DNA of 45,499 nt from Candidatus Humicultor tengchongensis (GTDB lineage: Bacteria > Sysuimicrobiota > Sysuimicrobiia > Sysuimicrobiales > Humicultoraceae): NCBI GenBank assembly GCA_031459715.1, contig JAVKIA010000019.1, positions 1 through 45,499 of the forward strand, in the 5' to 3' direction. Of this stretch, positions 2,646-44,488 are shown piece after piece; position 1 is the stretch's first letter, and each line of letters opens with the position of its first letter. The notes under the pieces are model-generated. The model did not search any database, was not told where the DNA came from, and worked only from the letters and a program-made list of their open reading frames with translations. The position numbers and the translations under genes were made by a program.

Positions 2646-2685
2646 CTTTCGCAGAGACTACAATGACAGACGCCGGAAAGCGGTG

Positions 2686-3540: not shown

Positions 3541-3601
3541 GGTTCACGCTCCTTTCGCCACCAGATGCAGCCCGGTGGAGATTCCCGCGCACCGCCACGA
3601 C

Positions 3602-3631: not shown

Positions 3632-3637
3632 GAACCC

Positions 3638-7219: not shown

Positions 7220-8395
7220 TTAAGGCTGCGCGGTGGAGTGATAGCGGAACTTACCCTCCCTGATCTGGATGATCACTGCGCTCTTCACCGGATCCCCGGT
7301 CCCCTTGAACTGCATCACGCCGGTCACCCCCTCGTACTGGGTGATGCCGGCCAGCGCGTCCCGCACCGCCTGGCGGTCCAGCCGCCCCGCGGCCCGGATG
7401 GCCTGGAAGGCCAGGCCGAAGGAGTCGTAGGTCAGCGCCGCCACGTCGTCGGGGGTCTTGCCGTACTTGCTCTCGTAGGCCTTGATGAAGGCCTGAGCCT
7501 TGGGCGTGGCGATGTCGGTGGCGTAGTGGGTGGTGAAGTACAGGCCCTCGCAGTCCTTGCCGCACAGGGTAATCAGCTCCAGGTTGCCCCAGGAGTCGCT
7601 GCCGAAGATGACGCCGGCAAAACCCAGGCGGCGCGCCTGCTGCACCTGCAGGGGTACCTCGCTGTAGTAGTTGGGCAGGAAGAGGGAGTCAGCGCCCGCC
7701 GCGCGGATCTTGGTGAGCTGAGAGGAGAAGTCCTTGTCGCCGGTGGTGTAGGTCTCGAAGGCGACCACGGAGACGCCGGCAGCCTCGATGGTCTTCTTGT
7801 ACACCTCGGCAATGCCTTTGTTGTACTCGGAGGCCACGTCGTAGAGCACCGCGGGCTTGGTGGTCTTCAGTTCCTGCAGGGCGAACTTGGCCGCCACCAC
7901 TCCCTGGAAGTCGTCTATGAAGGCGGCGCGGAAGACGAACTTCTTGGGCTGGCCGGTGGCGGCGTCGATGGTGGTCTTCACCGCGGTGGACCAGGGGCTG
8001 ATCATGGGCAGTTTGGCCGACTCGGCCACCTCCGCAGCCGGGATGGCGTTGCGGCTGGCGTTGGGCCCGATCATGAGCAGCACGCCGGCGGTATTCAGCT
8101 TGTGGGCTGCCGCGGCGGCGGACTCGGCCTTGTCCTCGTTGTCCTCCACCAGCAGCTCCACCCGGTACTTCCGGCCGCCCACGTCCAGTCCGCCGGCGGT
8201 GTTCACCTCCGCCACGGCCAGCTCGGCGCCGTTCTTGCAGGAGGCGCCCACCACCGGGATGCCTCCGGTGAGCTCGGCGTTCAGGCCGATGCGGATCACC
8301 GCGGGCGCCGGTGCCCGTGTGCGGGCAACCAGCACCACGACGACGGCTGCCACGACCACGATGACAGCCGCGACCAGCAGAGACCGCGTCCTCAT
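7220..8395 (-). CDS. BCAA (Leu/Ile/Val) ABC transporter substrate-binding protein with an N-terminal membrane anchor or signal
   Basis: LivK/LivJ-type periplasmic binding protein (IRIGLNAELTGGIPVVGAS..., ...FFLPNYYSE...). The N-terminal hydrophobic stretch is LLVAAVIVVVAAVVVVLVA. I prefer ATG 8395 (GGGGG Shine-Dalgarno 8 nt upstream) over the track start GTG 8404. Confidence 0.85.
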   Translation of the reverse strand: MRTRSLLVAAVIVVVAAVVVVLVARTRAPAPAVIRIGLNAELTGGIPVVGASCKNGAELAVAEVNTAGGLDVGGRKYRVELLVEDNEDKAESAAAAAHKLNTAGVLLMIGPNASRNAIPAAEVAESAKLPMISPWSTAVKTTIDAATGQPKKFVFRAAFIDDFQGVVAAKFALQELKTTKPAVLYDVASEYNKGIAEVYKKTIEAAGVSVVAFETYTTGDKDFSSQLTKIRAAGADSLFLPNYYSEVPLQVQQARRLGFAGVIFGSDSWGNLELITLCGKDCEGLYFTTHYATDIATPKAQAFIKAYESKYGKTPDDVAALTYDSFGLAFQAIRAAGRLDRQAVRDALAGITQYEGVTGVMQFKGTGDPVKSAVIIQIREGKFRYHSTAQP

Positions 8396-8611
8396 GAAGA
8401 TCACCCCCTGCTATCGTCTGCCGTGCTCGATCCACAGGTGGGAGGGAGTGCCTGGCGCTGCCGTGGGAGGGCCTGCCCCGCGCTGCGCCGGCACGGCTAC
8501 TGAACTCAATGCTCGCATGGCGCCCCTCGTCCCGTCAAAGGGAAGGAAAGGGAGTCTCCGGATTCGGGGCGGCCTCCCGGTGCCGGGGCAGGGTCCGGCC
8601 TGGCGCCGCCG

Positions 8612-9576: not shown

Positions 9577-10905
9577 TTACAGGTCCGTGACCGCGGCCTG
9601 GCCGCCCCGGAAGCCTTCCAGCCGGGCCTTGATGTGGTTTAGGAACCGGTCGGCCACCGCGCCGTCAAAGACACGGTGGTCGAAGGAGAGCCCCAGGTGC
9701 ATGATGGAGCGGATGGCGATGGCCTCACCCCAGGGTGCCGCTTCGCCCCGCCCGTCGCCGCGACCCCCGACCACCACCGGCCGCCTGACAATGGCATCGG
9801 TGGCCAGGATGGCCGCCTGGCCGGGGAGGATGATGGGCATCGACCAGATCGAGCCGAAGATGCCGGGATTGGTGATGGTGAACGTCCCGCCCTCCACGTC
9901 CTCCAGGGTCAGCTTACCCTCGCGGGCCCTGCGGCTGAGGTCCTCCAGATCCCGGGCTATGCCCAGGAGCGACTTCTGATCGGCGTCCTTGATCACCGGA
10001 ACGATCAGGCCGTCCTCCAGGGCCACCCCGACGCCGATATTTACCCGGCCCCGCAGCAGGACGCCCTCCTCGGTCCAGGTGGAGTTGACCACGGGGAAGG
10101 CGCGCAGCGCCTCCGCCGCGGCCCGCACGAAGAAGGCGGTGTAGGTGAGGGCCACCCCGTGACGCTGCCGCCACTCGTCCTTGTACTTCTCCCGCCAGTC
10201 CACGACCCCGGTCATATCCACCTCGATCACGCCGTAGGCATGCGGGATCTCCCGCTTGGACTGGGCCATGCGCTGGGCAATGGTGCGTCGCAGCGGGGAG
10301 AGCTTGAGCAGCCGGTCGCCGGGAGCAGCCGCGGGGGTGGGGACGGCCGGCGCGGGGGCCACCGGCGGCCCTGCGGGTGAAGGGGCGGCAGCCGGCGGCG
10401 TGGCGGGGGAGACCACCGCCGGCGCAGTCTCCCGCTGGGCCACGTACCTGAGCAGGTCCTCCTTGGTGACCCGCCCGCCCGCCCCGCTGCCGCGGAGCTG
10501 CTCCACCTCGGCCAGGGGAATCCCGTGTTCTTCCGCCAGGCGGCGGACCAGCGGGGAGAGCCTGGCACCGGCCTGCCGCGGGGGCGGCGCACCCGCCGGG
10601 GGCGCAGAGGGGACGGGCCCCGCAGCCCCCGCCCCCACGGGTTCCCCCGCCGCCACGGGCTCGGCCGCTTCGACTTCCATCAGGGCGATGGGCGTTCCCA
10701 CCTCCCTGGTCTCACCCTCAGGCACCAGGATCTCTTTCAGGATGCCGCCATAGGGCGAGGGCATCTCCACGTTGACCTTGTCCGTGATGATCTCGACCAG
10801 AGGCTCAAACCGCTCCACCCGGTCGCCGGGCTGCTTCAGCCAGCGGCCGATGGTCCCCTCGAATGTGGACTCGCCTAGCTGGGGCAGCTTTATCTCAACG
10901 GGCAT
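9577..10905 (-). CDS. Dihydrolipoamide acyltransferase (E2) of a 2-oxoacid dehydrogenase complex, probably branched-chain
   Basis: 442 aa. It has a lipoyl domain ([14 protein letters not shown]), Ala/Pro linkers, a subunit-binding domain ([14 protein letters not shown]) and a catalytic domain with SFDHRVFDG. Confidence 0.9.
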
Positions 10906-30498: not shown

Positions 30499-30528
30499 AC
30501 GCTAGCAGAGCGCGGAGCTGTTTGTCAA
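30499..30528 (-). promoter_or_regulatory. Putative promoter of the ilv-leu operon leader
   Basis: Minus strand reads TTGACA-N18-TAGCGT. The -35 hexamer overlaps the gltB stop codon (30525..30527). Confidence 0.45.
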
Positions 30529-33500
30529 GCCCTGAATCCCGAAAGTTCGGAATCTGGCGAACCGGCCGCCTCCGCAGCATCCTGTCCGAGGAGGCCGCGG
30601 GGGAGGACCTTTCGGAGGCGACCGGCTGAAAAAGGCCAGGCCTGCAGCAGCTCTGCCGCCCGCCGGCTCCCGGTGTGCGCCAGATGCTCGGCGAGGAGGT
30701 CGCGCAGCTCGTGCAGATCTTTCGCTTCGACCTGCACCACCGACACCGTCTCCTGGTTGCACCGGCCGGCGAACAGGCCGTCCTCGTCCAGGACGTAGGC
30801 CCGGCCCCCGGTCATCCCCGCACCGAAGTTGTAGCCGGCGCGGCCCAGCACCACCACTACCCCTCCGGTCATGTACTCGCACCCGTGGTCGCCCACCCCT
30901 TCCACTACGGCCACCGCGCCGCTGTTGCGCACGGCGAAGCGCTCGCCGGCGCGCCCCGCGGCGAAGAACCGGCCGCCGGTGGCGCCGTAGAGGACCGTGT
31001 TGCCCGCGATCACGTTCTCGTGGGAGGCGCCGGTGAAACCACGCGGCGGGCGGATGGCGATCGTTCCCCCGCTCATCCCCTTCCCCGCATAGTCGTTGAC
31101 CTCGCCCTCCAGCTCCAGGACCATCCCCGGGACGCAGAACGCGCCGAAGCTCTGACCCGCGCTCCCGGTAAACCGGAGCACGACGCGTCCCTCCCCCAGT
31201 CCTCCCTCCCCGTACCGCCTGGCGATGGCTCCGGCCAGGCGTCCGCCCACCGTCCGGTCCATGTTGCTGATGGAGTAGGTCAGGTGCACTGGGATGCCGC
31301 GCTCCAGGGCGGGCCAGGCGTCCATCCAGACGCGGTCGTCCAGGGTGGGGCCCTCGGGCCGCTTGTTGCGCGCCTGCATGCAGCGCCGCGCCGCCTCCGG
31401 CACCCCGGCGGACCCGGCCAGGAGCGCGGAAAGGCCGATACGGCGTCCCAGGACGGACTCGTCCACCGGGGATAGCAGCTCGCTGCGCCCGATGACCTCC
31501 TCCAGGGTGCGGGCGCCCAGCGCCGCCAGGTGACGCCGCACCTCCTCGGCCACCGCAAGCAGGTATGCCTCCACCCGCTCGGGCCGTCCGCTGAACCGGC
31601 CTCGCAGGTCCTCCCGCTGCGTGGCGATGCCGGTGGGGCAGGTGTTGAGGTGGCAGGCGCGGGCCATCACGCAGCCCAGGGCGACCAGCGCCGCGGTGCC
31701 GAAGCCGAACTCGTCTGCGCCCAGCAGGGCAGCCACGACCACGTCCCGCCCCGTTTTCAGCCCCCCGTCCACGCGCAGGCGGACCCGCCCGCGCAGCCCG
31801 CTGGCCACCAGCACCTGCTGGGTCTCCGCCAACCCCAGCTCCCAGGGCAGGCCCACGTGCTTGATGGACTCCAGGGGCGAGGCCCCCGTGCCGCCGTCGT
31901 GTCCGCTGATCTGGATGGTGTCGGCAAAGGCCTTGGCCACCCCCGCGGCGATGGTGCCCACACCGGCTTCCGCCACCAGCTTCACAGCCACGCGGGCCAG
32001 AGGATGGACTCGCTTGAGGTCGTAGATGAGCTGGGCCAGGTCCTCGATGCTGTAGATGTCGTGGTGGGGCGGCGGGGAGATCAGCGTGATCCCCGGCTGC
32101 GCGCGGCGGATGGCGGCGATCTCGGCGCTGACCTTGTGGCCGGGGAGCTGGCCTCCCTCGCCCGGCTTGCTCCCCTGCGCCATCTTGATCTCCAGCTCGT
32201 CGGCCGATACCAGGTAGGCCGCAGTCACCCCGAATCGTGCCGAGGCCACCTGCTTGATCCGGCTGTTGGCGTTGGTGCCGTCGGGCCGGGGGAGGTAGCG
32301 GGAGGGATCCTCGCCCCCCTCGCCGCTGTTGGAGCGGGCCCCCAGGCGGTTGGCGGCGATGGCCAGGGCCTCATGTGCCTCCCGGGAGAGCGCCCCGTGG
32401 GACATCGCTGAGAGGACGAAGCGGCGCACGATGGCGTCGGCAGGCTCCACCTCCTCCAGAGGGACGGGCTCCCGCCGGACAAAGGCCAGCAGGTCGCGCA
32501 GGGCGGTGGGGGGGCGGGAGGCGACCAGGTCGGCGAAGGCGGTGTAGGCCTGGCCGCTGCCCGACTGGGCGGCCTGGTGCAGCCGCTTCACTACATAAGG
32601 GTTGAAGGCGTGGTATTCACCGTCGCGGCGGAAGCGGACCAGCCCCGGGTCCGCCAGCTCTCCATCTCCGGCGAAGGCGCGTGCGTGGCGGGCGGCCGCC
32701 TGGGCGGCCAATTCGTCCAGGGAGACGCCGCCCAGGTGGGCGGGCGTGCCGGGGAAGTAGCGCTCCACCACCTGAGGGTCCAGCCCCACGACCTCGAAGA
32801 CCTGCCCGCCCTGGTACCCGGCGAGGGTGCTGATTCCCATCTTGCTGGCCACCTTGAGCAACCCCTGCTCCAGAGCGCTGAGGTACTGCCGGACCGAGGG
32901 TCGGCGGCCGTTGGCGGAGGGCAGCGCGGCCACGGTCTCCAGGGCCAGGTAGGGGCAGACCGCCTCAACTCCGTAGCCCAGCAGGCAGGCTACCTGGTGG
33001 ACGGTACGCGCTTCACCGCTCTCGACCAGCAGACCCACCCGCATGCGCAGCCCCACCCGGATGAGGTGATGGTGAACGGCGCTGGCGGCCAGGAGCATGG
33101 GGATGGGGATGCGTTTTGGGTCGGCGGCGCGGTCGCTGAGGATGAGCAGACCTGCCCCTTCTGAAACTGCGGATTCCGCCTCGCCGGCCAGACGGACAAG
33201 CGCAGCCTCCAGCGAGTCGCGGTCCGCAGGCCACGTGGCGTCCAGAACCACCGCCGGCCAGGGAGCGTGGGCGCGCACCCAGCCAAGCTGGTCGGGGGTG
33301 AGCACGGGCGAGGGGAAGGCCAGCAGCGCGGCGTGTTCGGGGCCATCCTCCAGCCAGTTGCGCCGCGGGCCCACCCGGACGGCAAGCGACATCACCAGCC
33401 GCTCCCGCAGGGGGTCGATCGGCGGATTGGTCACCTGGGCGAACCGCTGGCGGAAGTAATCGTAGAGGAGCCGGGGCCGTTGAGACAGGGCAGCGGGCGG

Positions 33501-35000
33501 GGTGTCGTCACCCATGGAGAAGACGACCTCCTTGCCCTCGGTGGCCATCGGCAGGAGGAGGTAGGTCACCTCTTCAGCCGTATACCCGAACACCTGCTGG
33601 CGGCGGCGCAGCCTGGCCCCGGCTGCGCTGTCTTGGGGTGGCGCTCCTGCATCAGGAGCGAGCGCCGCCTGCTCCGGCCCCTTCGCCGGCACCGGGGGTT
33701 CCCAGTTCCCGCCCGGGACGCGGATGATCCGGCGCGTCCACTCCCGGTAGGACCTGGCCGCGGCCACCTGTGCCTTTATCTCCGCGTCCGCCAGCATCTG
33801 GCCGGTGACAGTGTCCACCGCCAGGACCTGGCCCGGCCCCAACCGCCCCTTGCGCACCACCTGATCTGCGGGAAACGGTAGGACCCCAGCCTCTGACGCC
33901 AGCACTACCAGCCCCTCTGCCGTCACGGCGTAGCGGGCGGGTCGCAGGCCGTTACGGTCGAGGGCCGCGGCCACGATGCGCCCGTCGGAGCAGGCCAGCG
34001 CCGCGGGTCCGTCCCACGGCTCGGTCAGGCAGGCGTGGTACTCGTAGAAGGCGCGCACCGCATCGGGCAGGTCCGGGAGCTCCTCCCACGCCTGCGGGAC
34101 CAGCATCAGGAGGGCATGGAGCAGAGAGCGGCCCGAGGCCACCAGCAGCTCCAGGACGCTGTCCAGGTGGGCGCTGTCGCTTCCGCCCTCCTGCAGCAGC
34201 GGGACCAGGTCCCTCCACCGGTCGGCCCAGAGGGACTCCCGCAGCATCGCTTCCCGCGCGCGGGTCCAGAGGAGGTTGCCCTGCAGGGTGTTGATCTCCC
34301 CGTTGTGCGCCAGGTAGCGAAAGGGCTGGGCCAGCCACCAGCTGGGGGAGGTGTTGGTGCTGTACCGCTGGTGGAAGACCGCCAGCCGGGTGACGTAGGC
34401 GGGGTCGGTCAGGTCGCCATAGAAGCGCCCGAGTTGGGGGGAGACGAAGAGGCCTTTGTAGACCACGGTCCGGTGCGAGAAAGAAGCGATGTAGGCTCCA
34501 AGACCGGATTCCCGCAGGCGTCGCTCTGCCGTCCTCCGGGCGAGGTAGAGGCTGCGGGTGAAGGCAGGGTCATCATCCCCCGCCCGCCGCACGACCACGA
34601 GCTGTCGGATCACCGGCTGCGTCACGCGGGCGAAGGCTCCAAGTGCGTCCGGGTCTACGGGAACGGGCCGCCAGCCCAGGACGCGCAACCCCTGAGAACA
34701 CGCGGCCTGCTCAATCAGCGCCGCAGCCTCGTCTGCGGCAGCAGATGGCAGGAACACCATGGCCAGGGCCAGGTCCTCATCGCCCACGTCCCCCAGCGGG
34801 AGGTCGCGGCGCAGCAGGTCATAGGGAAGCTGGGTGAGCACCCCCGCTCCGTCCCCCGACTTCCCGTCGGCGGAGACGGCCCCACGGTGGCTCATCCGGG
34901 AGACGGCGGAGAGCGCCGCGGCCAGCACAGCGTGGCTGGGGAAGCGGTGGGCAACGAACCCTACGCCGCAGGCGTCGTGTTCCGCGATCGGGCTGACCAC
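30525..35000 (-). CDS. gltB: Glutamate synthase large subunit (GltB / Fd-GOGAT-like single large chain)
   Basis: 1491 aa from GTG 35000 with a perfect AAGGGAGG 4 nt upstream. The N-terminus MVSPIAEHDA-CGVGFVA gives the Ntn-amidotransferase Cys1 after a short propeptide. FMN and C-terminal GXGXG domains are present. Track start 35108 lies inside the riboswitch platform and is rejected. Confidence 0.93.
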   Translation of the reverse strand: MVSPIAEHDACGVGFVAHRFPSHAVLAAALSAVSRMSHRGAVSADGKSGDGAGVLTQLPYDLLRRDLPLGDVGDEDLALAMVFLPSAAADEAAALIEQAACSQGLRVLGWRPVPVDPDALGAFARVTQPVIRQLVVVRRAGDDDPAFTRSLYLARRTAERRLRESGLGAYIASFSHRTVVYKGLFVSPQLGRFYGDLTDPAYVTRLAVFHQRYSTNTSPSWWLAQPFRYLAHNGEINTLQGNLLWTRAREAMLRESLWADRWRDLVPLLQEGGSDSAHLDSVLELLVASGRSLLHALLMLVPQAWEELPDLPDAVRAFYEYHACLTEPWDGPAALACSDGRIVAAALDRNGLRPARYAVTAEGLVVLASEAGVLPFPADQVVRKGRLGPGQVLAVDTVTGQMLADAEIKAQVAAARSYREWTRRIIRVPGGNWEPPVPAKGPEQAALAPDAGAPPQDSAAGARLRRRQQVFGYTAEEVTYLLLPMATEGKEVVFSMGDDTPPAALSQRPRLLYDYFRQRFAQVTNPPIDPLRERLVMSLAVRVGPRRNWLEDGPEHAALLAFPSPVLTPDQLGWVRAHAPWPAVVLDATWPADRDSLEAALVRLAGEAESAVSEGAGLLILSDRAADPKRIPIPMLLAASAVHHHLIRVGLRMRVGLLVESGEARTVHQVACLLGYGVEAVCPYLALETVAALPSANGRRPSVRQYLSALEQGLLKVASKMGISTLAGYQGGQVFEVVGLDPQVVERYFPGTPAHLGGVSLDELAAQAAARHARAFAGDGELADPGLVRFRRDGEYHAFNPYVVKRLHQAAQSGSGQAYTAFADLVASRPPTALRDLLAFVRREPVPLEEVEPADAIVRRFVLSAMSHGALSREAHEALAIAANRLGARSNSGEGGEDPSRYLPRPDGTNANSRIKQVASARFGVTAAYLVSADELEIKMAQGSKPGEGGQLPGHKVSAEIAAIRRAQPGITLISPPPHHDIYSIEDLAQLIYDLKRVHPLARVAVKLVAEAGVGTIAAGVAKAFADTIQISGHDGGTGASPLESIKHVGLPWELGLAETQQVLVASGLRGRVRLRVDGGLKTGRDVVVAALLGADEFGFGTAALVALGCVMARACHLNTCPTGIATQREDLRGRFSGRPERVEAYLLAVAEEVRRHLAALGARTLEEVIGRSELLSPVDESVLGRRIGLSALLAGSAGVPEAARRCMQARNKRPEGPTLDDRVWMDAWPALERGIPVHLTYSISNMDRTVGGRLAGAIARRYGEGGLGEGRVVLRFTGSAGQSFGAFCVPGMVLELEGEVNDYAGKGMSGGTIAIRPPRGFTGASHENVIAGNTVLYGATGGRFFAAGRAGERFAVRNSGAVAVVEGVGDHGCEYMTGGVVVVLGRAGYNFGAGMTGGRAYVLDEDGLFAGRCNQETVSVVQVEAKDLHELRDLLAEHLAHTGSRRAAELLQAWPFSAGRLRKVLPRGLLGQDAAEAAGSPDSELSGFRA

Positions 35001-35088
35001 TGGACCTCCCTTAGACTTCCTCAGGGCAAGCCGTCCGTCACAGGCGACTTTCAGGACAGCGCCCGCTCCAGGATCCCCTGCTATGCAC

Positions 35089-35300
35089 GAAGCCCGAGGG
35101 CGAGGCACCCACCGGACTGTGCACTCCGGCGAGTGCGAACCTCTCCCTCGGGCTTCTCTCCCGATGGTAGACCGGCCGACCCCACCCGATCCGCTCAGGA
35201 ACCAGACCGGGGAACTGTCGGTATTTCGCTGCCGGCCTGCGCCGCTTGAACCAGGCCTTCCCCTGGTGGAGGAAGCGGAACCCTAGGCGCCTCTCGCGCC
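35089..35300 (-). promoter_or_regulatory. Second ykkC-family (subtype-2-like) riboswitch with expression platform, upstream of gltB
   Basis: The minus-strand RNA reads GCGCCUAGGGUUCCGCUUCCUCCACCAGGGGAAGGCCUGGUUCAAGCGGCGCAGG...(insert of about 65 nt)...ACCAUCGGGAGAGAAGCCCGAGGGAGAG. GAAGCCCGAGGG (35156..35145) is perfectly complementary to CCCUCGGGCUUC (35100..35089). A TTGACA lies at 35350..35345, about 58 nt upstream of the aptamer. Confidence 0.7.
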
Positions 35301-35564
35301 AAGCGCGAGGAACTTGGCGCCATGGTTGCAGCCGGTCGGGATCCTGTCAAGCGGTTCGTTCGCGTAACTCGAACATTCTGGCAAGAACCCGGGGAGCGCA
35401 TGTGGCTCCCCTGACGGCTTCCGCTCCCTGCAGTGCCTGAGATCCGAGCCTGGGCCTGCGAGCGATCCCCGGGCCGGGCCGTGGACTCCCACGCTCGGTG
35501 AGGCCCTGAAAGCTCTCACTTCCGGCCGATCCTCATTCCTGGTAAGGTCAAAAGATGATCGCCC

Positions 35565-35867
35565 ATGGGGACCGAGACCACCGGCGTCAGGCTTGCCCGG
35601 CTGGAAGGCGCCTACGAGCAGATTGACAGGCGCCTGGGCACCATCGAGGGGCGCCTGGCCGTGCTGGAAGGCAAGGTGGACGCCGGGTTCGCCCGACTCG
35701 ACGCCAAGATCGGCGGGAAGATCGACGCGCTCGCCTCCGAGCTGCGGGAGGCGATCGTGCGTACCAACGCCCGGATGGATGCCCTGGGCGCCCGTCTGAA
35801 CACCGCGATGTTTGGCATCGTGGCCGCCGTCCTGGTTCCCATCCTCCTGCGCCTTTTCTGGCCCTGA
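35565..35867 (+). CDS. Small coiled-coil protein with a C-terminal transmembrane helix (hypothetical; DUF1640/XhlA-like appearance)
   Basis: 100-aa ORF with strong GC3 bias and sensible composition. It shows heptad-like repeats (RLARLEGAYEQIDRRLGTIEGRLAVLEGKVD...) and the C-terminal segment MFGIVAAVLVPILLRLFW. The ORF ends 9 nt before the stop of the convergent hom gene. Confidence 0.55.
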   Translation: MGTETTGVRLARLEGAYEQIDRRLGTIEGRLAVLEGKVDAGFARLDAKIGGKIDALASELREAIVRTNARMDALGARLNTAMFGIVAAVLVPILLRLFWP

Positions 35868-35876
35868 CAGCCGCTG

Positions 35877-37169
35877 CTACTCCACAACCCGGATGACGCT
35901 GCCCACCACCTGCACCACGTCCATAGCCCGCAGCCTCACCACCACGCGGCGCATGGCCGCCTCTTCCGCCTCGTGGGTCAGCAGGACGACGTCGGCCACC
36001 TCGCCGCGGCTCTTTTGCACGATGGAGGCGATGCTCACCTGCTCCTCGCCGAAGACTGTGGCGATCCGGGCGAAGACGCCGGGGCGATCGGTCACCTGGA
36101 GGCGCAGGTAGAAGGGGATGACCAGACGCTCCATGGGGTGCACTTCGCGGCGCACCGAAGGGGCGGAGAGGGTGCGCCCGCCGGCACCGCGGAGGCGGTT
36201 GCGCGCTGCGTCGATGATATCGCCCACCACTGCCGCCGCGGTAGGCGCACCCCCGGCACCGGGCCCACTGAAGAGCACCCGACCGCAGGCTTCCCCTTCC
36301 ACCAGCACGGCGTTGCGCTCTTCAGAAATCCCGGCCAGGAGGTGGCCGGCCGGGACGAGGGCGGGGTGGACGCGCAACTCCAGGGCGCCGTCCCGGTCGC
36401 GGGCCACGGCCAGGAGTTTGATGACGTAGCCCAGCTCCGCGGCGTGCCGGATGTCTGCGGGGGTGACCCCGCCGATCCCCTCGCGGTAGACCTGCTCCGC
36501 GGCCAGGGAGGTATTGAAAGCTACCGTAGCTAGGATGGCCAGCTTGGCCGCCGCATCATGTCCGTCCACGTCGTCGGCGGGATCCGCCTCCGCAAACCCA
36601 CGGGCCTGCGCCTCGGCCAGCGCATCGTCGAAGGTCCGCCCCTCCCGGCTCATCAGGGTGAGGATGTAGTTGGTCGTCCCGTTGAGGATGCCCTCGATCA
36701 GGCGGATCCGGTCGGCGGCCAGGGATTCGCGCAGCGGTTTGATCAGCGGGATCCCCGCACCCACACTGGCCTCGAAACAGAGGTCGACGCCTGCCGCCGC
36801 CGCAGCAGCCAGCAGCTCCGCCCCGTGCGCGGCCAGCAGTTGCTTGTTGGCAGTGACCACGGCCTTGCCCCCAGCCAGGGCGCGCAGCAGGAGCGATCGG
36901 ACCGGCTCCACCCCGCCCACCACCTCCACCACGATATCCACGGCGGGATCCTCCACCACCGTGGCCCCGTCGGTGGTCAGCAAGGATGAAGGGATGCGCA
37001 CGCGCCGCGGCCGGCCGGGACGGGCCACGGCCACGCGCCGCACCACGCAGGGCCGGCCCACCAGGCCCGCGATGTGCTCCGCCCGCTCCGCCAGGAGGCG
37101 GTAGACCTCCGCCCCCACCGTCCCCAGCCCGAGCAGGCCGACGCCGATCTCCGGAAGCCGGGATGCCAT
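35877..37169 (-). CDS. hom: Homoserine dehydrogenase with a C-terminal ACT domain
   Basis: 430 aa from ATG 37169 with GGAGGAGG upstream: GVGLLGLGTVGAEVYRLL...VVTANKQLLA...; the ACT domain reads YLRLQVTDRPGVFARIATVFGEEQVSI. The 123-codon upstream extension of the track ORF is rejected. Confidence 0.92.
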   Translation of the reverse strand: MASRLPEIGVGLLGLGTVGAEVYRLLAERAEHIAGLVGRPCVVRRVAVARPGRPRRVRIPSSLLTTDGATVVEDPAVDIVVEVVGGVEPVRSLLLRALAGGKAVVTANKQLLAAHGAELLAAAAAAGVDLCFEASVGAGIPLIKPLRESLAADRIRLIEGILNGTTNYILTLMSREGRTFDDALAEAQARGFAEADPADDVDGHDAAAKLAILATVAFNTSLAAEQVYREGIGGVTPADIRHAAELGYVIKLLAVARDRDGALELRVHPALVPAGHLLAGISEERNAVLVEGEACGRVLFSGPGAGGAPTAAAVVGDIIDAARNRLRGAGGRTLSAPSVRREVHPMERLVIPFYLRLQVTDRPGVFARIATVFGEEQVSIASIVQKSRGEVADVVLLTHEAEEAAMRRVVVRLRAMDVVQVVGSVIRVVE

Positions 37170-37245: not shown

Positions 37246-37273
37246 TTGACAACCGCCGCGGAGGTGCTACTTT
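37246..37273 (+). promoter_or_regulatory. Putative promoter of the amt leader
   Basis: TTGACA-N16-TACTTT, followed by an unusually AT-rich stretch (TTTTTTGGGATAAATAGAG). Confidence 0.35.
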
Positions 37274-37302
37274 TTTGGGATAAATAGAGTGCAGTTGGCC
37301 TG

Positions 37303-37349
37303 AGGCCGCGACGCCTCTCAAGCGAAGGGGTCGCGGCCTTTCGCTTTTC
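37303..37349 (+). terminator. Intrinsic-terminator-like hairpin inside the amt 5' leader (candidate attenuator)
   Basis: AGGCCGCGAC-N17-GUCGCGGCCU (10-bp stem) followed by UUCGCUUUUCGG. It lies about 100 nt upstream of the amt ATG and downstream of the putative promoter. No plus-strand gene lies upstream for it to terminate. Confidence 0.5.
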
Positions 37350-37450
37350 GGTGTACCGGCGGATCAGCCACGTCCCGGCGGGCTCGGGGCAGAGAGAGGC
37401 AGCGTCCGCGGGGGCACGGGGAGCGGAGAGAGGCACAGGAGGGACGACAG

Positions 37451-38893
37451 ATGGCCTTGCCGGGAAAGCCAGAGCGCGCGGGACGTATGTGGCTGGCCGC
37501 AGCCCTCGGCCTGCTGGTCGCAGGCTCCGCCGCAGCACCCGCCCTGGCCGCCGATCCGTCCGGGAGCGCCACCCTGGCCCGTCAGCCCGAGGCCGCCGTC
37601 AACTTCACCTGGACGCTGGTGGCCGCCTTCCTGGTCTTCTTCATGCAGGCGGGGTTCGCCCTGCTGGGTGCAGGGCTGATCCGCTCCAAGAACACGGTCA
37701 ACTACCTGACCAAGAGCTTCATGGACTTCTGCATGGCCTCGCTCTCCTTCTGGGCCTTCGGCTTCGCCCTGATGTTCGGCGGCTCCAGGCTGGCCCCAGG
37801 CCTGGAGGCCGGAGGCACCCTGGCGGGCTTCTCCGGATTCTTCCTGGCCCGCGGGAGCTACGACGTCTCCGCTGCGATGCTGTGGCTGTTCCAGATGGTC
37901 TTCGCCGCCACGGCGGCGACCATCGTCGCCGGCGCGGTGGCCGAGCGCATGAAGATCACTGCTTACCTGGCCTACAGCTTCCTCATCGGCGCGCTTATCT
38001 ACCCCATCTACGGGCACTGGGTCTGGGGCGGGGGCTGGCTGGCAACCCTGCCCTGGGGCGCGGGGGCGCGGGACTTCGCTGGCTCCGGCGTCGTGCACGC
38101 CGTGGGCGGGCTGCTGGCCCTGGTCGGTGCGGCCATGACCGGTCCGCGCCTGGGGAAATTCAACCGTGACGGCACGGCCAATGCCATCCCCGGCCACAAC
38201 ATGGTCTACGCCGTGACCGGGACGTTTGTCCTTTTCTTCGGCTGGTTCGGCTTCAACGCCGGCAGCACCCTGGCGGCCACCGACCTGCGCACCGCGGTGA
38301 TTGCCACAAACACCTTCCTCGCCGGAACCGCCGGAGCCGTAACCGCCCTCTACTACGCCCTGGTCCGCAGCGGTCGGGCGGATGTGGTCATGGCCTGCAA
38401 CGGCGCGCTGGCCGGCCTGGTGGGGATCACCGCTCCCTGCGCCTACGTGGCGCCGTGGGCGGCGGTGGTGATCGGCGCCGTCGGCGCCCTGATCATGGTG
38501 GGTGTGAGCGCCTTCGTCGAGCGGGTCCTCAAGGTGGACGACCCGGTGGGTGCCATCGCCGTGCACGCGGGCGGGGGGCTGTGGGGCCTGCTCGCGGTGG
38601 GAATTTTTGCCGACGGCACCTACGGAGGCGTCCGCGGGCTGATTACCGGAGCCGGAGGTCAGATGTTGGCGCAACTGGTGAGCATCGGCGCGGTCCTGGC
38701 CTGGAGCCTGGGGACCGGGTTCCTGATGTTCTGGTTCCTCAAGGCGACCATGGGCCTTCGGGCCTCGCCGGAGGAGGAGCTGTCGGGGCTGGACGTCCCC
38801 GAGCACGGGATCGAGTGCTACCCGGAACTGCAACTGGTCCCGGTTATGGGCGCCAGTGAGCCCCCGGCGATGCGACGGGAGGTGGGAGCATGA
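37451..38893 (+). CDS. amt: Ammonium transporter (Amt/MEP family) with an N-terminal signal peptide
   Basis: 480 aa with AGGAGGG 7 nt upstream: ...FLVFFMQAGFALLGAGLIRSKN..., ...AVHAGGGLWGLLAVGIFADG... A signal-like segment MWLAAALGLLVAGSAAAPALAA is present. Confidence 0.93.
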   Translation: MALPGKPERAGRMWLAAALGLLVAGSAAAPALAADPSGSATLARQPEAAVNFTWTLVAAFLVFFMQAGFALLGAGLIRSKNTVNYLTKSFMDFCMASLSFWAFGFALMFGGSRLAPGLEAGGTLAGFSGFFLARGSYDVSAAMLWLFQMVFAATAATIVAGAVAERMKITAYLAYSFLIGALIYPIYGHWVWGGGWLATLPWGAGARDFAGSGVVHAVGGLLALVGAAMTGPRLGKFNRDGTANAIPGHNMVYAVTGTFVLFFGWFGFNAGSTLAATDLRTAVIATNTFLAGTAGAVTALYYALVRSGRADVVMACNGALAGLVGITAPCAYVAPWAAVVIGAVGALIMVGVSAFVERVLKVDDPVGAIAVHAGGGLWGLLAVGIFADGTYGGVRGLITGAGGQMLAQLVSIGAVLAWSLGTGFLMFWFLKATMGLRASPEEELSGLDVPEHGIECYPELQLVPVMGASEPPAMRREVGA

Positions 38894-40092
38894 TCTCCGA
38901 GGTGACAGCCGCTGTCCTCTTCTTCCTCCTGCTGGCCGCGGCCTGGCTGGTCCTGCCCACGCTCTTCGTACACCGGGAGCGGGTGGAGGGAGCGGCACGG
39001 CGGGAGCGACAGAGGCAGGTGGCGGCCGAACGCGTGCACCTGGCCGGCCCCCTGCCGGGAGGTCCGCCCAGGATGCGCTCCCGGGGGGCGCTTGCCGGCA
39101 GGCTGGTGCGCAACTCCCAGGACGGGACCTCTCCAAACGGTACGACTCCCCGCTACTTCTTCGTCGCCGACGGGGGAGCCCACGGCCCGGGTGAACTGCG
39201 CGTCCCCATCTACCACCAGGTCAACCCCCGACCGGACCTGCTGCGCAAGGAGATCTACGTGGCAGAGGTGGCGGGGATGCGGCTGGAGGCCGGCAACCTG
39301 CCGCTTCTGGCAGAGATGCTATCGGTGGAGCTCGCCCGGCTGCGCCGCGGCGGCGCGCTGCCGCGCTACTGGTTCACGCTGCCCGACGGCGGCAGCGTGC
39401 CGGTATTCGCCCGGGGGGAGGGGTTTGAGGCCCGCATACCCGGGGGCCCGCACCTGGTGGAGCAGACGGTGGGCCGGCTGCGTCGCCGCCTGGCGGAGTA
39501 CCTGGCGCCGTTCGGAGAGGCCGCCCGGGGCGGTGGGCCCGAGGTCCTGGTGCTTGGAGCCGACCTGCGCTGCGCCCGGCCGGTTGCGGCCTTCGCCGCT
39601 GGGGAACTCTGGCTGCCGGTCCTGCGTATGGACGGGGCGCTGGTGGTGGAGGAGGCGGTGTATGAGCGCCAGCCCGCGGAGGAGGACGCCGCCGCGCTGC
39701 TCCCCCTGCGCCGCCGCGTCGCCGACCGCCTGGTGGCCCGGGGTCGTGTGCGCTCCCCCGCCGAAGTTCGGATCGAAGAGGTGGAACGGCACGCAGCACA
39801 GCGGCTGCGCCTGCTCCTGGGCCCGCCGGTGGGCCACCTGCCCTGCTTCGGCGCCGAGGGCGGGACGCTGGAGCAGGTTCTGCTCCCGGTCTTCCGCTTC
39901 CAGGGCGAGGTGCTCTGCCCCGGCCGGGCGGACTTCTCCGTCCTCTACGTCGGTCGGGACGAGGAGGAGTTACGCGCTCAGGTGGACGGCTCCTCATGGC
40001 GGGACGGCCTGGGCGCGGCCGCAGACCTTCTCCCGCCCGCCGCAGCAGGGCAGGCCAGGGACAAGACCAGCGCGCTGGGGAGGGTGATCTGA
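38890..40092 (+). CDS. Hypothetical membrane-anchored protein with an internally repeated Arg-rich soluble region (no family recognised)
   Basis: 400-aa ORF with coding-like composition and GC3 bias. Its ATG overlaps the amt stop (ATGA). It has an N-terminal TM helix (AAVLFFLLLAAAWLVLPTLFV) and repeated segments PRYFFVADGG... and PRYWFTLPDGG... The alternative-frame ORF 39092..40087 is Cys/Trp/Arg-rich and rejected. Confidence 0.75.
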   Translation: MISEVTAAVLFFLLLAAAWLVLPTLFVHRERVEGAARRERQRQVAAERVHLAGPLPGGPPRMRSRGALAGRLVRNSQDGTSPNGTTPRYFFVADGGAHGPGELRVPIYHQVNPRPDLLRKEIYVAEVAGMRLEAGNLPLLAEMLSVELARLRRGGALPRYWFTLPDGGSVPVFARGEGFEARIPGGPHLVEQTVGRLRRRLAEYLAPFGEAARGGGPEVLVLGADLRCARPVAAFAAGELWLPVLRMDGALVVEEAVYERQPAEEDAAALLPLRRRVADRLVARGRVRSPAEVRIEEVERHAAQRLRLLLGPPVGHLPCFGAEGGTLEQVLLPVFRFQGEVLCPGRADFSVLYVGRDEEELRAQVDGSSWRDGLGAAADLLPPAAAGQARDKTSALGRVI

Positions 40093-40095
40093 GCC

Positions 40096-41496
40096 ATGGC
40101 AGTGGGATGGATCGTGGCTGCGGGCGTGGTGCTGCTGGGCGCCGCCTTCGCCGTCTGGGCGCTGCGGTACACGAAGGTCGGCCCCAACGAGGTGCTGATC
40201 ATCTCCGGCCGGCGGCGCACGGTGGCGGACCCCAGGGGAGGGAAGCGCACTGTGGGCTACCGCCTGGTGCACGGCGGGGGCACCTTCGTCTGGCCAATCA
40301 AAGAGAAGGTGCAGCGCATGTCCCTGGAGCTGATGACCCTGGAGGTGCGCACCCCCGAGGTATACACGGCCATGGCCGTCCCCGTCACCGTGGACGGGGT
40401 GGCGCAGATCAAGGTGAAGGGCGACGACGCCTCCATCGCCCTGGCCGCGGAACAGTTCCTCTCCCGGTCGCGGGAGGAGGTGATGCGCACCCTGCTGCAG
40501 ACCCTGGAAGGGCACATGCGCGCCATCCTGGGGACCATGGTGGTAGAGGAGATCTACCGCGGGCGGCAGGAGCTGGCCCGCCGCGTGCGCGAGGCCGCCG
40601 CGGAAGACCTGGGGAAGATGGGGATGGAGATCATCTCCCTGACCATCCGCAACGTCACCGACAGTCAGGGCTACCTGGAGGCGCTGGCCCGCCCCCGCAT
40701 CGCCCAGGTGAAGCGCGACGCGGTGAAGGGCGAGGCGGAGGCGGAGTGGGAGGCGCAGCAGGCCCGCTTTGCCGCCGACACCCGCATCGAGGCGGCGCGG
40801 CGGGACATGGAGATCAGCAAGGCAGGCTTCGAGGCGGAGGTGAAGCAGAAGCGGGCCGAGGCCGACCTGAGCTACGACCTGCAGCGGTTCAAGATGGCCC
40901 AGCGGGTGAAGGCGGAGGAAGTGCAGGTGGGCATTGTGGAGAAGCAGAAGGCCGTGGAGCTGCAGGCGCAGGAGATCCTCCGCCGGGAGAAAGAGCTGGT
41001 GGCCACCGTGCTCAAGCCCGCCGAGGTCGAGCGGCAGAAGGTGGAACTTCTGGCGGAGGCCGAGCACTACCGCCTCAAGGCGGAGGGGCAGGGGCGGGCC
41101 GAGGAGATCCGCGCCCGGGGGACGGCCGAGGCCGCGGTGATCAAGGAGAAGGGCCTGGCGGAGGCCGAGGCCATGCTGCGTAAGGCCGACTCCTGGGGGC
41201 GGTACAACGAGGCGGCCATCAGCGAGCTATTCATCAACGTCCTGCCCCAGCTGGCCCGCGCGGTGAGCGAGCCGCTGGCCAGGACCGAGAAGATCGTGGT
41301 GGTGGGCAGCGACGGGAAGGGCACCGGTGCCTCCCGGATCACCGGCGACGTGGCCCAGGTGGTGGCGCAGCTACCGGCCGTGATCGAGGCGCTGACCGGG
41401 ATCAAGCTGCACAAGCTCCTGGAGCGGCTCCCCGCCCTGGCGGCGGCCGGCCGCAGCGAGCCCGGGGACCGCGAGGCGCCTGCCGGGGAGGTGTAG
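40096..41496 (+). CDS. Flotillin / SPFH (band-7) domain protein, FloT/YuaG-like
   Basis: 466 aa. It has an N-terminal membrane hairpin (WIVAAGVVLLGAAFAVWAL), a PHB domain, then EA-rich coiled-coil flotillin repeats (KGEAEAEWEAQQARF..., EKGLAEAEAMLRKA). The start lies 3 nt after the previous stop, with GGGGAGGG upstream. Confidence 0.9.
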   Translation: MAVGWIVAAGVVLLGAAFAVWALRYTKVGPNEVLIISGRRRTVADPRGGKRTVGYRLVHGGGTFVWPIKEKVQRMSLELMTLEVRTPEVYTAMAVPVTVDGVAQIKVKGDDASIALAAEQFLSRSREEVMRTLLQTLEGHMRAILGTMVVEEIYRGRQELARRVREAAAEDLGKMGMEIISLTIRNVTDSQGYLEALARPRIAQVKRDAVKGEAEAEWEAQQARFAADTRIEAARRDMEISKAGFEAEVKQKRAEADLSYDLQRFKMAQRVKAEEVQVGIVEKQKAVELQAQEILRREKELVATVLKPAEVERQKVELLAEAEHYRLKAEGQGRAEEIRARGTAEAAVIKEKGLAEAEAMLRKADSWGRYNEAAISELFINVLPQLARAVSEPLARTEKIVVVGSDGKGTGASRITGDVAQVVAQLPAVIEALTGIKLHKLLERLPALAAAGRSEPGDREAPAGEV

Positions 41497-41499
41497 GGA

Positions 41500-42975
41500 A
41501 TGGCCAAGGCCAGTTTGCGTCCTGCGACGCTCAAACCGACCACAGCCGCGGAGGTGCTGGAGCTGTGCCAGGGGACCGTGGAGGTGCGGGAGCGGCAGCG
41601 GGTGGAGGTGGTCGACCTGCGCTTCGTGGACCTGCTGGGCGCCTGGCAGCACTTCTCCATCCCGGCGGGTGAGCTGAGCGAGGAGCTGTTTGCGGAAGGC
41701 ATCGGGTTCGACGGGTCCAGCATCCGCGGCTTCCAGCACATCCACGAGAGCGACATGCTCCTCCTCCCCGACCCGACCACCGCGCGCATCGACCCCCTGG
41801 GCGATCCTCCCACCCTGGCCATCATCTGCAACGTGGTCGACCCCATCACCCGAGAACCCTACACCCGGGACGCCCGGTTCGTGGCCCAGAAGGCGGAGCG
41901 CTACCTGCGGGCCTCAGGTATCGCCGAAGTCAGCTACTGGGGGCCGGAGGTGGAGTTCTTCGTCTTCGACGACGTGCGCTTCGACCAGAACCAGCACTCC
42001 GGCTACTACTACCTGGATTCCATGGAGGGCGCCTGGAACACCGGGCGGGAGGAGAAGCCCAACCTGGGCTACAAGCCGCGGTACAAGGAGGGCTACTTTC
42101 CCGTCCCGCCCACCGACTCCCTGCAGCCCCTGCGCTCGCGCATGGTCCGCCGCCTGCTGGAGGCCGGCCTGGAGGTGGAGGCGCACCACCACGAGGTGGG
42201 CAGCGGCGGGCAGTGCGAGATCGACCTGCGCTTTACCTCCCTCACCGAGATGGGCGACCGCGTCCTCTGGTACAAGTACGTCGTGCGCAACGTGGCCCGG
42301 GCCGCGGGCAAGGTCGTCACCTTCATGCCCAAGCCGCTGTTTGGAGACAACGGCTCGGGGATGCACACCCACCAGAGCCTGTGGGCGGCGGGCGCCAACC
42401 TGTTCTTCGACCCCCGCGGCTACGCCCAGCTCAGCGAGCTGGCCATGTACTACATCGGGGGGCTGATCAGGCATACCCCGGCCCTGCTGGCCTTCTGCGC
42501 CCCCACCACCAACTCGTACCGCCGCCTGGTACCCGGCTACGAGGCGCCGGTGAACCTGGCCTACGCCCAGCGCAACCGCAGCGCCTGCATCCGCATCCCC
42601 GTCTACTCCGCCAGCCCGGGGGCCAAGCGCATCGAGTACCGCTGCCCCGACCCCACCTGCAACCCCTACCTGGCCTTTGCCGCCATGCTCATGGCCGGCC
42701 TGGACGGCATCGAGCAGCGGATAGACCCCGGGGCGCCCATGGACGTGGACCTGTACGAACTGGCCAGCGGCAACGGCGGCGCGGTCCCGCAGGTGCCTGC
42801 CTCACTCCCCGAGGTGCTGGATGCCCTGGAGGCCGACCACGACTTCCTCCTGCGCGGCGAGGTCTTCACCGAAGACCTCATCCACGCCTGGATCGCCTAC
42901 AAGCGCCACAAGGAGGTGGACGCGGTGCGGCTGCGGCCCCACCCGTGGGAGTTCGCCCTGTACTTTGACGCCTGA
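41500..42975 (+). CDS. glnA: Glutamine synthetase type I
   Basis: 491 aa: ...VDLRFVDLLGAWQHFSIP...FDGSSIRGF...; ...MPKPLFGDNGSGMHTHQSLW...; ...NSYRRLVPGYEAP... The start lies 3 nt after the flotillin stop, with GGGGAGG upstream. Confidence 0.95.
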   Translation: MAKASLRPATLKPTTAAEVLELCQGTVEVRERQRVEVVDLRFVDLLGAWQHFSIPAGELSEELFAEGIGFDGSSIRGFQHIHESDMLLLPDPTTARIDPLGDPPTLAIICNVVDPITREPYTRDARFVAQKAERYLRASGIAEVSYWGPEVEFFVFDDVRFDQNQHSGYYYLDSMEGAWNTGREEKPNLGYKPRYKEGYFPVPPTDSLQPLRSRMVRRLLEAGLEVEAHHHEVGSGGQCEIDLRFTSLTEMGDRVLWYKYVVRNVARAAGKVVTFMPKPLFGDNGSGMHTHQSLWAAGANLFFDPRGYAQLSELAMYYIGGLIRHTPALLAFCAPTTNSYRRLVPGYEAPVNLAYAQRNRSACIRIPVYSASPGAKRIEYRCPDPTCNPYLAFAAMLMAGLDGIEQRIDPGAPMDVDLYELASGNGGAVPQVPASLPEVLDALEADHDFLLRGEVFTEDLIHAWIAYKRHKEVDAVRLRPHPWEFALYFDA

Positions 42976-43085: not shown

Positions 43086-43727
43086 GTGAGAATGGCCGGG
43101 TTGCGCAATTTGAAGAAATTACCGGCCACCCTCTTTGGCGTGATGCTGGATGCTCCGGGCATGGATCTGGATCGCCGCATCACAGTCGTCCCGGCGGGCT
43201 GTTCTGCGCCGGCCCTAACTCCTGACGACCTCGCGGCCTACCAGCGCACAGTGGGGGAGATCCTGGACGCCCACCGCCCTGGCCTGCTGGTGGTTGAGAA
43301 CGAGGAAAACTCGGCTCTGTTCTATCGGGGCACACCTCGGGAGTACGGGGCTGAGCTTCAGGCGGCCCACTCAGGTGCAGGAGCAACTGGCACGGGGAAG
43401 GGCGCTGCTGGCGCAGTACCGGGCCGCCGGTGCCGACTTTCTCAGTATCCACCGGTACATTCCCGACCCACAGGCTCTGCGCCAGGCGGTCATCCTCCTG
43501 CGGCAGCGGTTGGGGCTCCGCTGGTAACCAATGAGATCGCCCAGCACGACCACAACCCGCAGACGACCACGGCCCTGCTGACGGCGGTGGCGGACCTGCG
43601 TTTGCCTTACGCGGTGTGGTTCAGCATCGACGCTGCACGGGCCCGGGCGCTGATGAACCCAGACGGGACGCTGCGCCCAACCGGCGAGGCCTTCCGGGCA
43701 TTCATGGCCGGCCGGACACACCGGTAA
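43086..43727 (+). pseudogene. N-terminally truncated, doubly frameshifted remnant of a clan GH-A-like hydrolase gene
   Basis: Frame 0 gives ...GEILDAHRPGLLVVENEENSALFYRGTPREYGAELQAA, and later ...LVTNEIAQHD...LPYAVWFSID... The middle third is protein-like only in the +1 frame, that of track ORF 43294..43527: QVQEQLARGRALLAQYRAAGADFLSIHRYIPDPQALRQAVILLRQRLG. The motif order NE / HxY / NE / W appears only after frame correction. Confidence 0.5.
43242..43316 (+). repeat. Copy A of a duplicated gene segment (encodes QRTVGEILDAHRPGLLVVENEENSA)
   Basis: About 85% nucleotide identity over 75 nt with 45365..45439. Weaker similarity extends about 35 nt further upstream. Confidence 0.8.
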
Positions 43728-43769
43728 GCAGCCGGGTAGGCTGGGCATGGGTCGGGAGGACCAGAAGCA

Positions 43770-44488
43770 GTGCGCCGGTTCCTGATCGACACCGACACCG
43801 CCTCCGACGACGCCGTGGCACTACTCATGGCCCACCGCTGGCCGGACGTGCAGGTGGACGCGGTCACCATCGTCGCCGGCAACGTGCCTGTGGAGATGGG
43901 CGCGCGCAACGCCGGCTACACCATCGAGCTGTGCGGCCAGGAGACACCGGTGTATGTGGGATGCGACCGGCCGCTGCTACGCGAGCCCCGCTGGGCCTTC
44001 TTCTTCCACGGCCCCGACGGCATGGGTGGGATGAACTACCCGCCGCCGAGTTCAACATCTGGGTGGACCCCGAGGCCGCCCGCATTGTGCTTCACTCGGG
44101 GATGCCCATCCTCATGGTGGGCTGGGAGCACTGCCGGGGCCCGGCGGCGTTCGACGAAGCCGGGATGGAAGAGGTCCGCCGCATCGGCACGCCCTACGCC
44201 CGGTTCGTTCTGGACTGCAACCGCACGGCCATCCGGGTGGCTATGGAGTGGCTGGGGGAGCCGGGACTGACGCTGCCGGATCCGGTAACCATGAGCATCG
44301 CCCTGGACCCGGCGGTATGCACTTCACGCGGCCGGCACTTCGTGGAGGTGGAGACCGCCAGCGACCTCACCCGCGGCATGACCGTGGTGGATCGCCACGG
44401 GGTGCTGAACCGGGAGCCCAACGTCGAGGTGTGCTGGGCCATCGACGTACCCCGCTGGAAGGAGACGCTGCTCCGCACGCTGCGCTGA
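43770..44488 (+). pseudogene. Inosine-uridine-preferring nucleoside hydrolase (IUNH/Rih family) with an internal deletion and frameshift
   Basis: The N-terminal part (frame of 43770) reads [19 protein letters not shown]...[17 protein letters not shown]. It then jumps, out of frame at about 44039..44048, directly to [27 protein letters not shown]..., in the frame of track ORF 43616..44488. The ~70 aa that normally lie between these motifs are absent. Confidence 0.65.

Follow-up and report, generated by a model that had tools for sequence, protein, structure and literature searches.

What, if anything, binds together an ammonium transporter, a protein of no recognised family, a flotillin and a glutamine synthetase (GS), whose genes stand in one tight row? 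The question is raised by a 45,499-nucleotide stretch of DNA (the window), a single contig of a metagenome-assembled genome (MAG) with approximately 70% G+C (JAVKIA010000019.1, Candidatus Humicultor tengchongensis), and the absence of partner genes described below applies to this contig. The genes for the transporter (amt), the unassigned protein (X), the flotillin and the GS (glnA) form four open reading frames (ORFs) in series on one strand (37451-42975):

37451-38893, + strand: amt, ammonium transporter; PF00909 E 1.5e-121, TIGR00836 421 bits (cutoff 343)
38890-40092, + strand: X, 400 residues; no match in Pfam or NCBIfam
40096-41496, + strand: flotillin; Band_7 E 1.2e-28, Flot 27.7 bits
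41500-42975, + strand: glnA, glutamine synthetase; Gln-synt_N and Gln-synt_C, TIGR00653 640 bits (cutoff 429)

Direct reading of the sequence confirmed the close packing of these genes described in an earlier note on this DNA. All four are co-directional; in the amt/X junction, GGGAGGTGGGAGC-ATGA, the ATG of X at 38890 overlaps the amt stop codon (TGA, 38891-38893), and gaps of three nucleotides separate X from flotillin (GGGGAGGGTGATC-TGA-GCC-ATG) and flotillin from glnA (GGGGAGGTG-TAG-GGA-ATG), with a GGAGG-type Shine-Dalgarno sequence for each of the X, flotillin and glnA starts lying within the preceding gene. No intergenic room for a promoter or terminator is left between the four genes, and the terminator-like matches returned by a consensus scan inside the operon were weak and all within coding sequence. 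Near-zero spacing is ordinary for operons, and the weight of the operon claim therefore comes from conservation elsewhere; the four-nucleotide overlap of amt and X, for example, is also present in the called-gene coordinates of the related loci L001, L002, L003, and L007.

The customary neighbours of these genes are missing from the window, as the earlier note had stated: Pfam scans found no P-II protein (PF00543), NfeD (PF01957) or GlnR-type regulator among the credible ORFs, and a tblastn search with E. coli GlnB gave no match. Hence, no glnK adjoins amt as in the canonical amtB-glnK arrangement, and the position 5' of glnA, which belongs to a MerR-type glnR in the glnRA arrangement, is taken by flotillin. 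The comparison with Firmicutes that had made the missing glnR appear noteworthy does not apply. X is identical to the MAG protein QN152_08540 (labelled "Armatimonadota bacterium"), and among named organisms the locus is most closely related to that of Candidatus Tepidifontimicrobium thermophilum (L019), a member of CSP1-3/Sysuimicrobiota, which is a phylum from hot springs that neighbours Armatimonadota (PMC11604079). Since the organism is not a Firmicute, the lack of glnR is irrelevant.

Conservation of X, flotillin and glnA

The gene contexts of distant X relatives, together with searches using the flotillin as bait, from which we kept the best 80 loci among 185,579 species genomes and the best 80 loci from metagenomes, showed that the arrangement recurs, a possibility that the earlier note had raised. 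Either amt-X-flotillin-glnA or its X-flotillin-glnA core was found in approximately 20 lineages, including CSP1-3/"Armatimonadota" MAGs, a Chloroflexota MAG and a contig with archaeal markers, and X was 22-36% identical across loci, as compared to 57-80% for the neighbouring genes. The cluster was present in five of the 80 genome loci (L019-L022 and L030) and in 16 of the 80 metagenome loci. At the remaining 75 and 64 loci, respectively, the flotillins were 50-56% identical and X was present in none; the 75 genome loci are mostly from Verrucomicrobiota, and X was absent from them even with ten diverse X queries. Three other clusters of X sequences (90% identity) were reached by a word index, all of them in an amt-X-flotillin context, and patterns derived from the membrane helix of X retrieved no relative in GTDB genomes. 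The following gene orders were observed, with identities referring to the X of the window:

amt-X-flotillin-glnA: many loci, among them L015 (X 30% identical) and L016-L018 (33%)
ANTAR regulator-nadE-amt-X-flotillin-glnA: L006 (31%)
X-flotillin-glnA: L009 and L010 (no amt; X 33% identical), L103, L106, L112, and L030
amt-X-flotillin-PII-glnA: L107
amt-PII-X-flotillin-glnA: L110 and L111
amt-PII-PII-X-flotillin-glnA: L108 and L109, and L022 from the first P-II gene onward
amt-X at a contig end: L004 (X 22% identical)

Wherever downstream sequence exists, the gene next to a free-standing X encodes flotillin (the window, L001-L003, L006, L007, L009-L022, L030, L100-L112, L125, L128, and L129), and glnA comes after flotillin in these loci, preceded by a P-II gene in L107. 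While the amt of the window is 71-92% identical to the amt of related clusters, the adjacent Amt in L105 and L108-L111 belongs to another subtype that is only 34-37% identical to the window Amt; in these same loci flotillin is 57-76% and GS 62-74% identical to the window proteins. Occurrence beside differing Amt subtypes, and without amt in L009 and L010, indicates that the module behaves as a unit. The invariant unit is thus X-flotillin-glnA, docked behind a resident amt or amt-glnK, and amt is a usual but not a constant member. The module also occurs in Archaea, as L109 is flanked by genes for the exosome subunit Csl4 (193 bits, cutoff 90) and geranylgeranyl reductase, and L022 carries the label Thermoplasmata.

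The P-II identity of the cluster-internal genes was confirmed by Pfam, and glnK adjoins amt in L108-L111, unlike in the window. The suggestion of the earlier note that Amt might be controlled independently of P-II did not hold as a property of the system, since glnK lies inside related clusters (L107-L111, with P-II also in L022); hence X is an added layer and not a replacement of P-II. On the other hand, the statement that no system of this kind had been described agrees with our full-text searches of the available papers, which returned no paper linking flotillin/SPFH proteins with amt, glnK or glnA and none on the cluster itself. The cluster is not mentioned in the CSP1-3 paper (PMC11604079), and glnB, glnK and amt are not among the genes listed in its supplements.

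Two loci deviate in detail. In the Chloroflexota MAG (L030, 2540-6271) X-flotillin is followed by two tandem glnA genes, the products of which are 70% and 62% identical to the window GS. In L004 (5001-6880) two Band_7/SPFH genes are located on the opposite strand approximately 1.7 kb upstream of amt, and on this basis the SPFH link to the module may extend beyond true flotillins.

Protein X and its operon neighbours

A profile search of 1.84 billion representatives identified 92 members of the X family at E<=1e-3 and 58 at E<=1e-10, corresponding to approximately 92 representatives at 50% clustering, which are annotated as hypothetical. A first AlphaFold run with four close homologs gave a predicted local distance difference test (pLDDT) score of 46.6 and was unusable, whereas a 49-sequence alignment yielded a model with pLDDT 85.4 and a predicted template modelling (pTM) score of 0.75. 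The model predicts an N-terminal membrane helix (approximately residues 5-27) that runs on as a long helix until about residue 52, and after it four tandem modules of a beta-meander plus helix (approximately residues 66-372). These modules match one another by hhalign with 92-97% probability and E-values down to 6.5e-10, showing that they are true tandem repeats, and the model found no fold match among PDB structures. The near-invariant positions across the family are limited to Pro, Gly, Tyr and Leu, none of them of a catalytic type, which argues against X being an enzyme.

Two known identities for X were considered and rejected. X is membrane-anchored in the window and encoded immediately 5' of an SPFH gene, which is the position of NfeD, but it has neither a PF01957 domain nor an OB-fold, so the resemblance is a positional analogy and not membership; in line with the earlier note, which had treated X as an orphan, Pfam, NCBIfam and fold comparison placed it neither with diverged NfeD nor in any other known family. 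Likewise, X is not a P-II/GlnK protein, as it does not match PF00543, a domain of approximately 112 residues with a trimeric ferredoxin-like fold and a T-loop, and genuine P-II genes coexist with it in L022 and L107-L111. X is a new, fast-evolving family without a Pfam model or a solved fold relative; at loci where X is 30-36% identical, the neighbouring genes reach 64-80%.

Judging from the protein sequences, X exists in three forms, with its own N-terminal helix as in the window, fused to the cytoplasmic C-terminus of Amt, or soluble. In CSP1-3-type X the membrane helix is followed by an Arg-rich stretch, whereas X of L015, L107, L004 and the archaeal loci has no N-terminal membrane helix. 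The fused form is best represented by P0037 (748 residues), in which Amt (residues 14-416) is joined by a Pro/Ala linker to the X domain with no membrane helix between, and the same in-frame fusion is seen in P0029, P0121, and P0122, which are partial sequences from further assemblies. These fusions argue that X and Amt associate physically at the cytoplasmic side of the membrane. The C-terminus of Amt is cytoplasmic and is the site where GlnK docks. A cytoplasmic location of the X repeats is indicated by the fusion, by the forms that have no helix and by the positively charged stretch behind the helix, so that the soluble part of X is probably on the same side of the membrane as GS, the docking site of GlnK and the body of the flotillin. 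No flotillin-glnA was seen downstream of the fusion genes; L099 ends too early, and L180 carries insertion sequence (IS) elements, with DDE_Tnp_1 and IS110-family transposases downstream of the fusion gene (2067-6062), so that the fusion lineage may have lost its earlier gene context at this locus.

The products of the other three genes could be assigned to known families. The window Amt, a member of the Amt/MEP/Rh family by its full-length Ammonium_transp domain and a TIGR00836 score above cutoff, begins with a segment resembling a signal peptide and ends in a cytoplasmic C-terminal region of the standard type. The flotillin carries a hydrophobic N-terminal segment, the SPFH/Band_7 domain (PF01145, E 1.2e-28) and PF15975 (27.7 bits, cutoff 27), and can be aligned from end to end with human flotillin-2 and flotillin-1 (9l3g, 9bq2) with E-values of 1e-82 to 1e-88; its score of 376.7 bits against the FloT equivalog NF058507 (cutoff 700) makes it a distant homolog of B. 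subtilis FloT. The GS is a type I, GSI-beta-like enzyme with Gln-synt_N and Gln-synt_C domains and a TIGR00653 score above cutoff. Among PDB structures it is closest to M. tuberculosis GlnA1 (4xyc, E 2.4e-184, alignment from query residue 30), with whose DLYEL motif its own DLYEL aligns, so that the tyrosine of the adenylylation loop is kept for a putative modification. An N-terminal extension of approximately 17 residues precedes the canonical start of the window GS, and a short Arg-rich beginning of this kind, MAVxRxRxRE...TP, is common to the GSs of the cluster (window 41500-41590, L006, L009, L016, L019, L102, and L105) and could serve as a docking peptide. CSP1-3 MAGs encode one to four copies of glnA each (PMC11604079), making the window GS probably one paralog among several.

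A possible ammonium-assimilation module at the membrane

The strict synteny of X-flotillin-glnA, the coupling of amt and X, the Amt-X fusions and the non-enzymatic repeats of X are best explained if X is an adaptor. We give an even chance to the explanation that X bridges Amt to a flotillin scaffold holding a GS paralog at the membrane, forming an ammonium-assimilation module. In such a module X would dock on the Amt trimer from the cytoplasm and, along with a scaffold of flotillin oligomers at that face of the membrane, would recruit or organise the co-encoded GS beside the channel. Incoming NH3/NH4+ could then be fixed into glutamine at the entry point, which would limit back-diffusion of NH3 and futile cycling, the cost of which would be highest at high temperature, and in clusters that include glnK, Amt would remain under its customary gating by GlnK.

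Several points weigh against this adaptor role. The co-transcription of the four genes is deduced from their spacing, and the contacts between Amt, X, flotillin and GS are proposed from the genes. Moreover, the link of Amt to X and the link of X to flotillin and GS are never found in one polypeptide or jointly demonstrated, and the fast evolution of X could reflect weak constraint. With one to four glnA copies per CSP1-3 MAG, the GS of the window may not be the main assimilatory enzyme. Finally, many bacteria assimilate ammonium well with a cytosolic GS, and the selective advantage of a membrane GS is a conjecture.

The nearest known systems provide partial precedents. As in amtB-glnK, amt is directly followed by a translationally coupled gene for a cytoplasmic partner, and the clusters of several relatives also contain a true glnK. 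In contrast to GlnK, X is unrelated to P-II in sequence and predicted fold, is three to four times larger, consists of four repeats, is often membrane-anchored and is always followed by flotillin and glnA, in the window in a cluster without glnK. Similarly, in nfeD-SPFH operons (B. subtilis yuaF-floT, or stomatin with NfeD) the gene for a membrane-anchored partner is located immediately 5' of the SPFH gene, and the flotillin is FloT-like here as well; the differences are that X has no PF01957 domain or OB-fold and can be fused to Amt, and that X-flotillin is embedded between amt and glnA. A true flotillin that is consistently paired and co-transcribed with one membrane protein, implying a dedicated client, has been described in the flotillin-associated rhodopsin cluster (PMC10308929), whereas here the client would be an ammonium channel plus a soluble enzyme, with X as an extra adaptor and in other taxa. 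That GS can act at the membrane has a precedent in the heliorhodopsin-GS operon, in which a membrane protein encoded beside glnA binds and regulates GS (PMC9529153); in the present cluster there is no rhodopsin, the membrane parts are Amt, X and flotillin, and binding of GS is a proposal.

HflK/C-FtsH and flotillin-1/2 (9bq2, 9l3g) form oligomeric cages. The full-length alignment with flotillin-1/2 suggests that the window flotillin may form a comparable client-holding oligomer on the cytoplasmic face, with the differences that Amt and GS are newly proposed clients and that the oligomer is here a matter of homology. A bolder form of the bridging explanation, which we find clearly improbable, would have X anchor Amt trimers in the membrane patch enclosed by a flotillin cage on the cytoplasmic face, with the GS dodecamer inside or at the cage, as an ammonia-trapping nanocompartment of bacteria and archaea, X being the founder of a class of Amt-binding adaptors.

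Instead of tethering, X could act mainly as a regulatory gate which, with the help of flotillin, plugs or opens Amt or switches GS activity on a signal, in analogy to GlnK on AmtB or to the small regulators that bind GS. The fused X sits at the C-terminal region of Amt, where GlnK docks, the window cluster has no glnK, and regulators that bind Amt or GS are known: sP36 (PMC10714827), sP26 and heliorhodopsin-GS (PMC9529153). However, X stands alongside one or two glnK genes in several lineages and is thus not a simple substitute for GlnK, it contains no conserved ligand-binding or catalytic motif, its four-repeat architecture is more typical of scaffolds, and the strict linkage to flotillin would be left unexplained; we therefore consider a gate rather unlikely. 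An alternative without any specific contact to Amt or GS is that flotillin and X constitute an NfeD-like pair with a general function in membrane organisation or stress, next to amt and glnA through shared nitrogen expression or by accident. X takes the position of nfeD in classical nfeD-SPFH operons, is membrane-anchored in the window like NfeD, and bacterial flotillins are generally regarded as proteins with many clients, but this explanation is improbable given that Amt-X fusions exist, that glnA follows flotillin in every lineage, bacterial and archaeal, that flotillins outside the clade have no adjacent X or glnA, and that X has neither the NfeD domain nor an OB-fold. Lastly, a specialised GS paralog with a role other than bulk ammonium assimilation, such as membrane sensing or moonlighting, served by X and flotillin, would be in keeping with the multiple glnA copies of CSP1-3 MAGs, the tandem glnA pair of L030 and the common Arg-rich extension, but it is very improbable because the enzyme scores well above the type I GS equivalog cutoff, is 60-plus percent similar to M. 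tuberculosis GlnA1 with an unbroken alignment across the catalytic domain, and is linked to amt, which points to ammonium.

Returning to X as an adaptor between Amt and a flotillin-held GS, the X family and the flotillin-linked cluster are new, while an SPFH scaffold with a partner and clients and the amt-glnK-glnA nitrogen operon are known. The cluster is suggestive, though not proof, of a membrane scaffold that links the uptake of ammonium to its assimilation. The specific clients of prokaryotic flotillins have been a long-standing question, for which the cluster offers Amt and GS as candidates and X as a candidate adaptor. X is also a previously unrecognised conserved component of the Amt/GlnK/GS axis, fused to Amt in one lineage, and, judging from the cluster, the capture of ammonium may have a spatial organisation at the membrane.

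The leader and the surrounding genes

Upstream of amt, the window contains a promoter and a stem-loop, which recur in related loci (approximate leader coordinates):

37246-37273, + strand: sigma-70-type promoter; -35 TTGACA (37246-37251), 16-nucleotide spacer, extended -10 TGcTACTTT (37265-37273)
37303-37348, + strand: stem-loop (37303-37339, GGCCGCGAC...GTCGCGGCC) followed by the T-rich tract TTTCGCTTTT
Leader of L001: ~4470-4580
Leader of L003: ~30-165
Leader of L006: ~8410-8540
Leader of L009: ~9790-9880
Leader of L016: ~8220-8305
Leader of L019: ~5265-5350
Leader of L021: ~5310-5410

The promoter was found by reading the sequence, a strict consensus scanner giving no call for it, and TTGACA-16/17-TAnnnT is kept 5' of the first operon gene in all seven related loci listed. 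The stem-loop sits between the promoter and the ribosome-binding site of amt and resembles an intrinsic terminator or attenuator, being GC-rich, followed by a U-tract and located between promoter and first gene; regulated read-through is putative. Promoter, hairpin and U-tract are kept in all eight lineages checked, that is, the window and the seven loci, and L009 has the same leader even though its first gene is X and amt is absent. The presence of one leader before whichever gene is first provides further evidence of a single regulated unit. The lower stem keeps its sequence (GCGACGCC/GGCGTCGC) and the upper stem covaries. Of the 12 pairs given by RNAalifold, four show compensatory changes. 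Folding of the leader is better than that of shuffled sequence (z -2.96), and its minimum-free-energy structure includes the hairpin. The U-tract of L016 and L019 continues straight into the Shine-Dalgarno sequence, so transcription must read through the hairpin. The hairpin may be a regulated attenuator, a protein-binding site or a 5' stabiliser.

A glutamine riboswitch or other known leader RNA was rejected, as Rfam gave no match for the leader at E<=10 and none at the gathering score for the whole window. A sigma-54 promoter inside the hairpin was rejected by eye because its GG/GC spacing is wrong. Tandem short hexaloop hairpins of the ANTAR type (A at position 1, G at 4), of which the second would overlap the terminator, were not evident as a pair by eye, and in L009, L016, and L019 the hairpin begins at most approximately 10 nucleotides from the -10 box, leaving no room for an ANTAR dual hairpin. 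In L006 (6044-8406) genes for an ANTAR-domain response regulator and a glutamine-dependent NAD synthase (nadE) are found directly upstream of amt, the regulator being two genes off, which is only a hint of a link to control through the leader. A nadE gene is also located divergently upstream of amt in the archaeal locus L109 (2704-4479), and nadE is a P-II-linked gene (PMC7196632).

Next to the operon, on its upstream side, the window contains:

35877-37166, - strand: ACT-domain homoserine dehydrogenase (hom), divergent
35565-35867, + strand: 100-residue ORF; third-position G+C (GC3) 0.88, coding-like; coiled-coil N-terminal part, hydrophobic C-terminal tail
30525-35108, - strand: gltB, glutamate synthase large subunit, divergent

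No gltD adjoins gltB in the window. L001 shares the set in 30525-37166, consisting of hom, the small ORF and a long gene upstream, and the 100-residue ORF, which has no family match above threshold, is kept there at 2795-3097. The remaining window genes have functions in branched-chain amino-acid biosynthesis or encode a 2-oxoacid dehydrogenase, an ABC transporter and complex I. Directly 3' of glnA, a 213-residue ORF (43086-43727) has no Pfam match and a GC3 of 0.70, below that of its neighbours, and its coding status is uncertain. It is followed by an inosine-uridine nucleoside hydrolase gene (43770-44488) that is split over two frames, the N-terminal DTDxxxDD part lying in ORF 43770-44270 and the C-terminal half (Pfam model positions 158-296) in ORF 43616-44488, a probable frameshift arising from a pseudogene or an assembly error.

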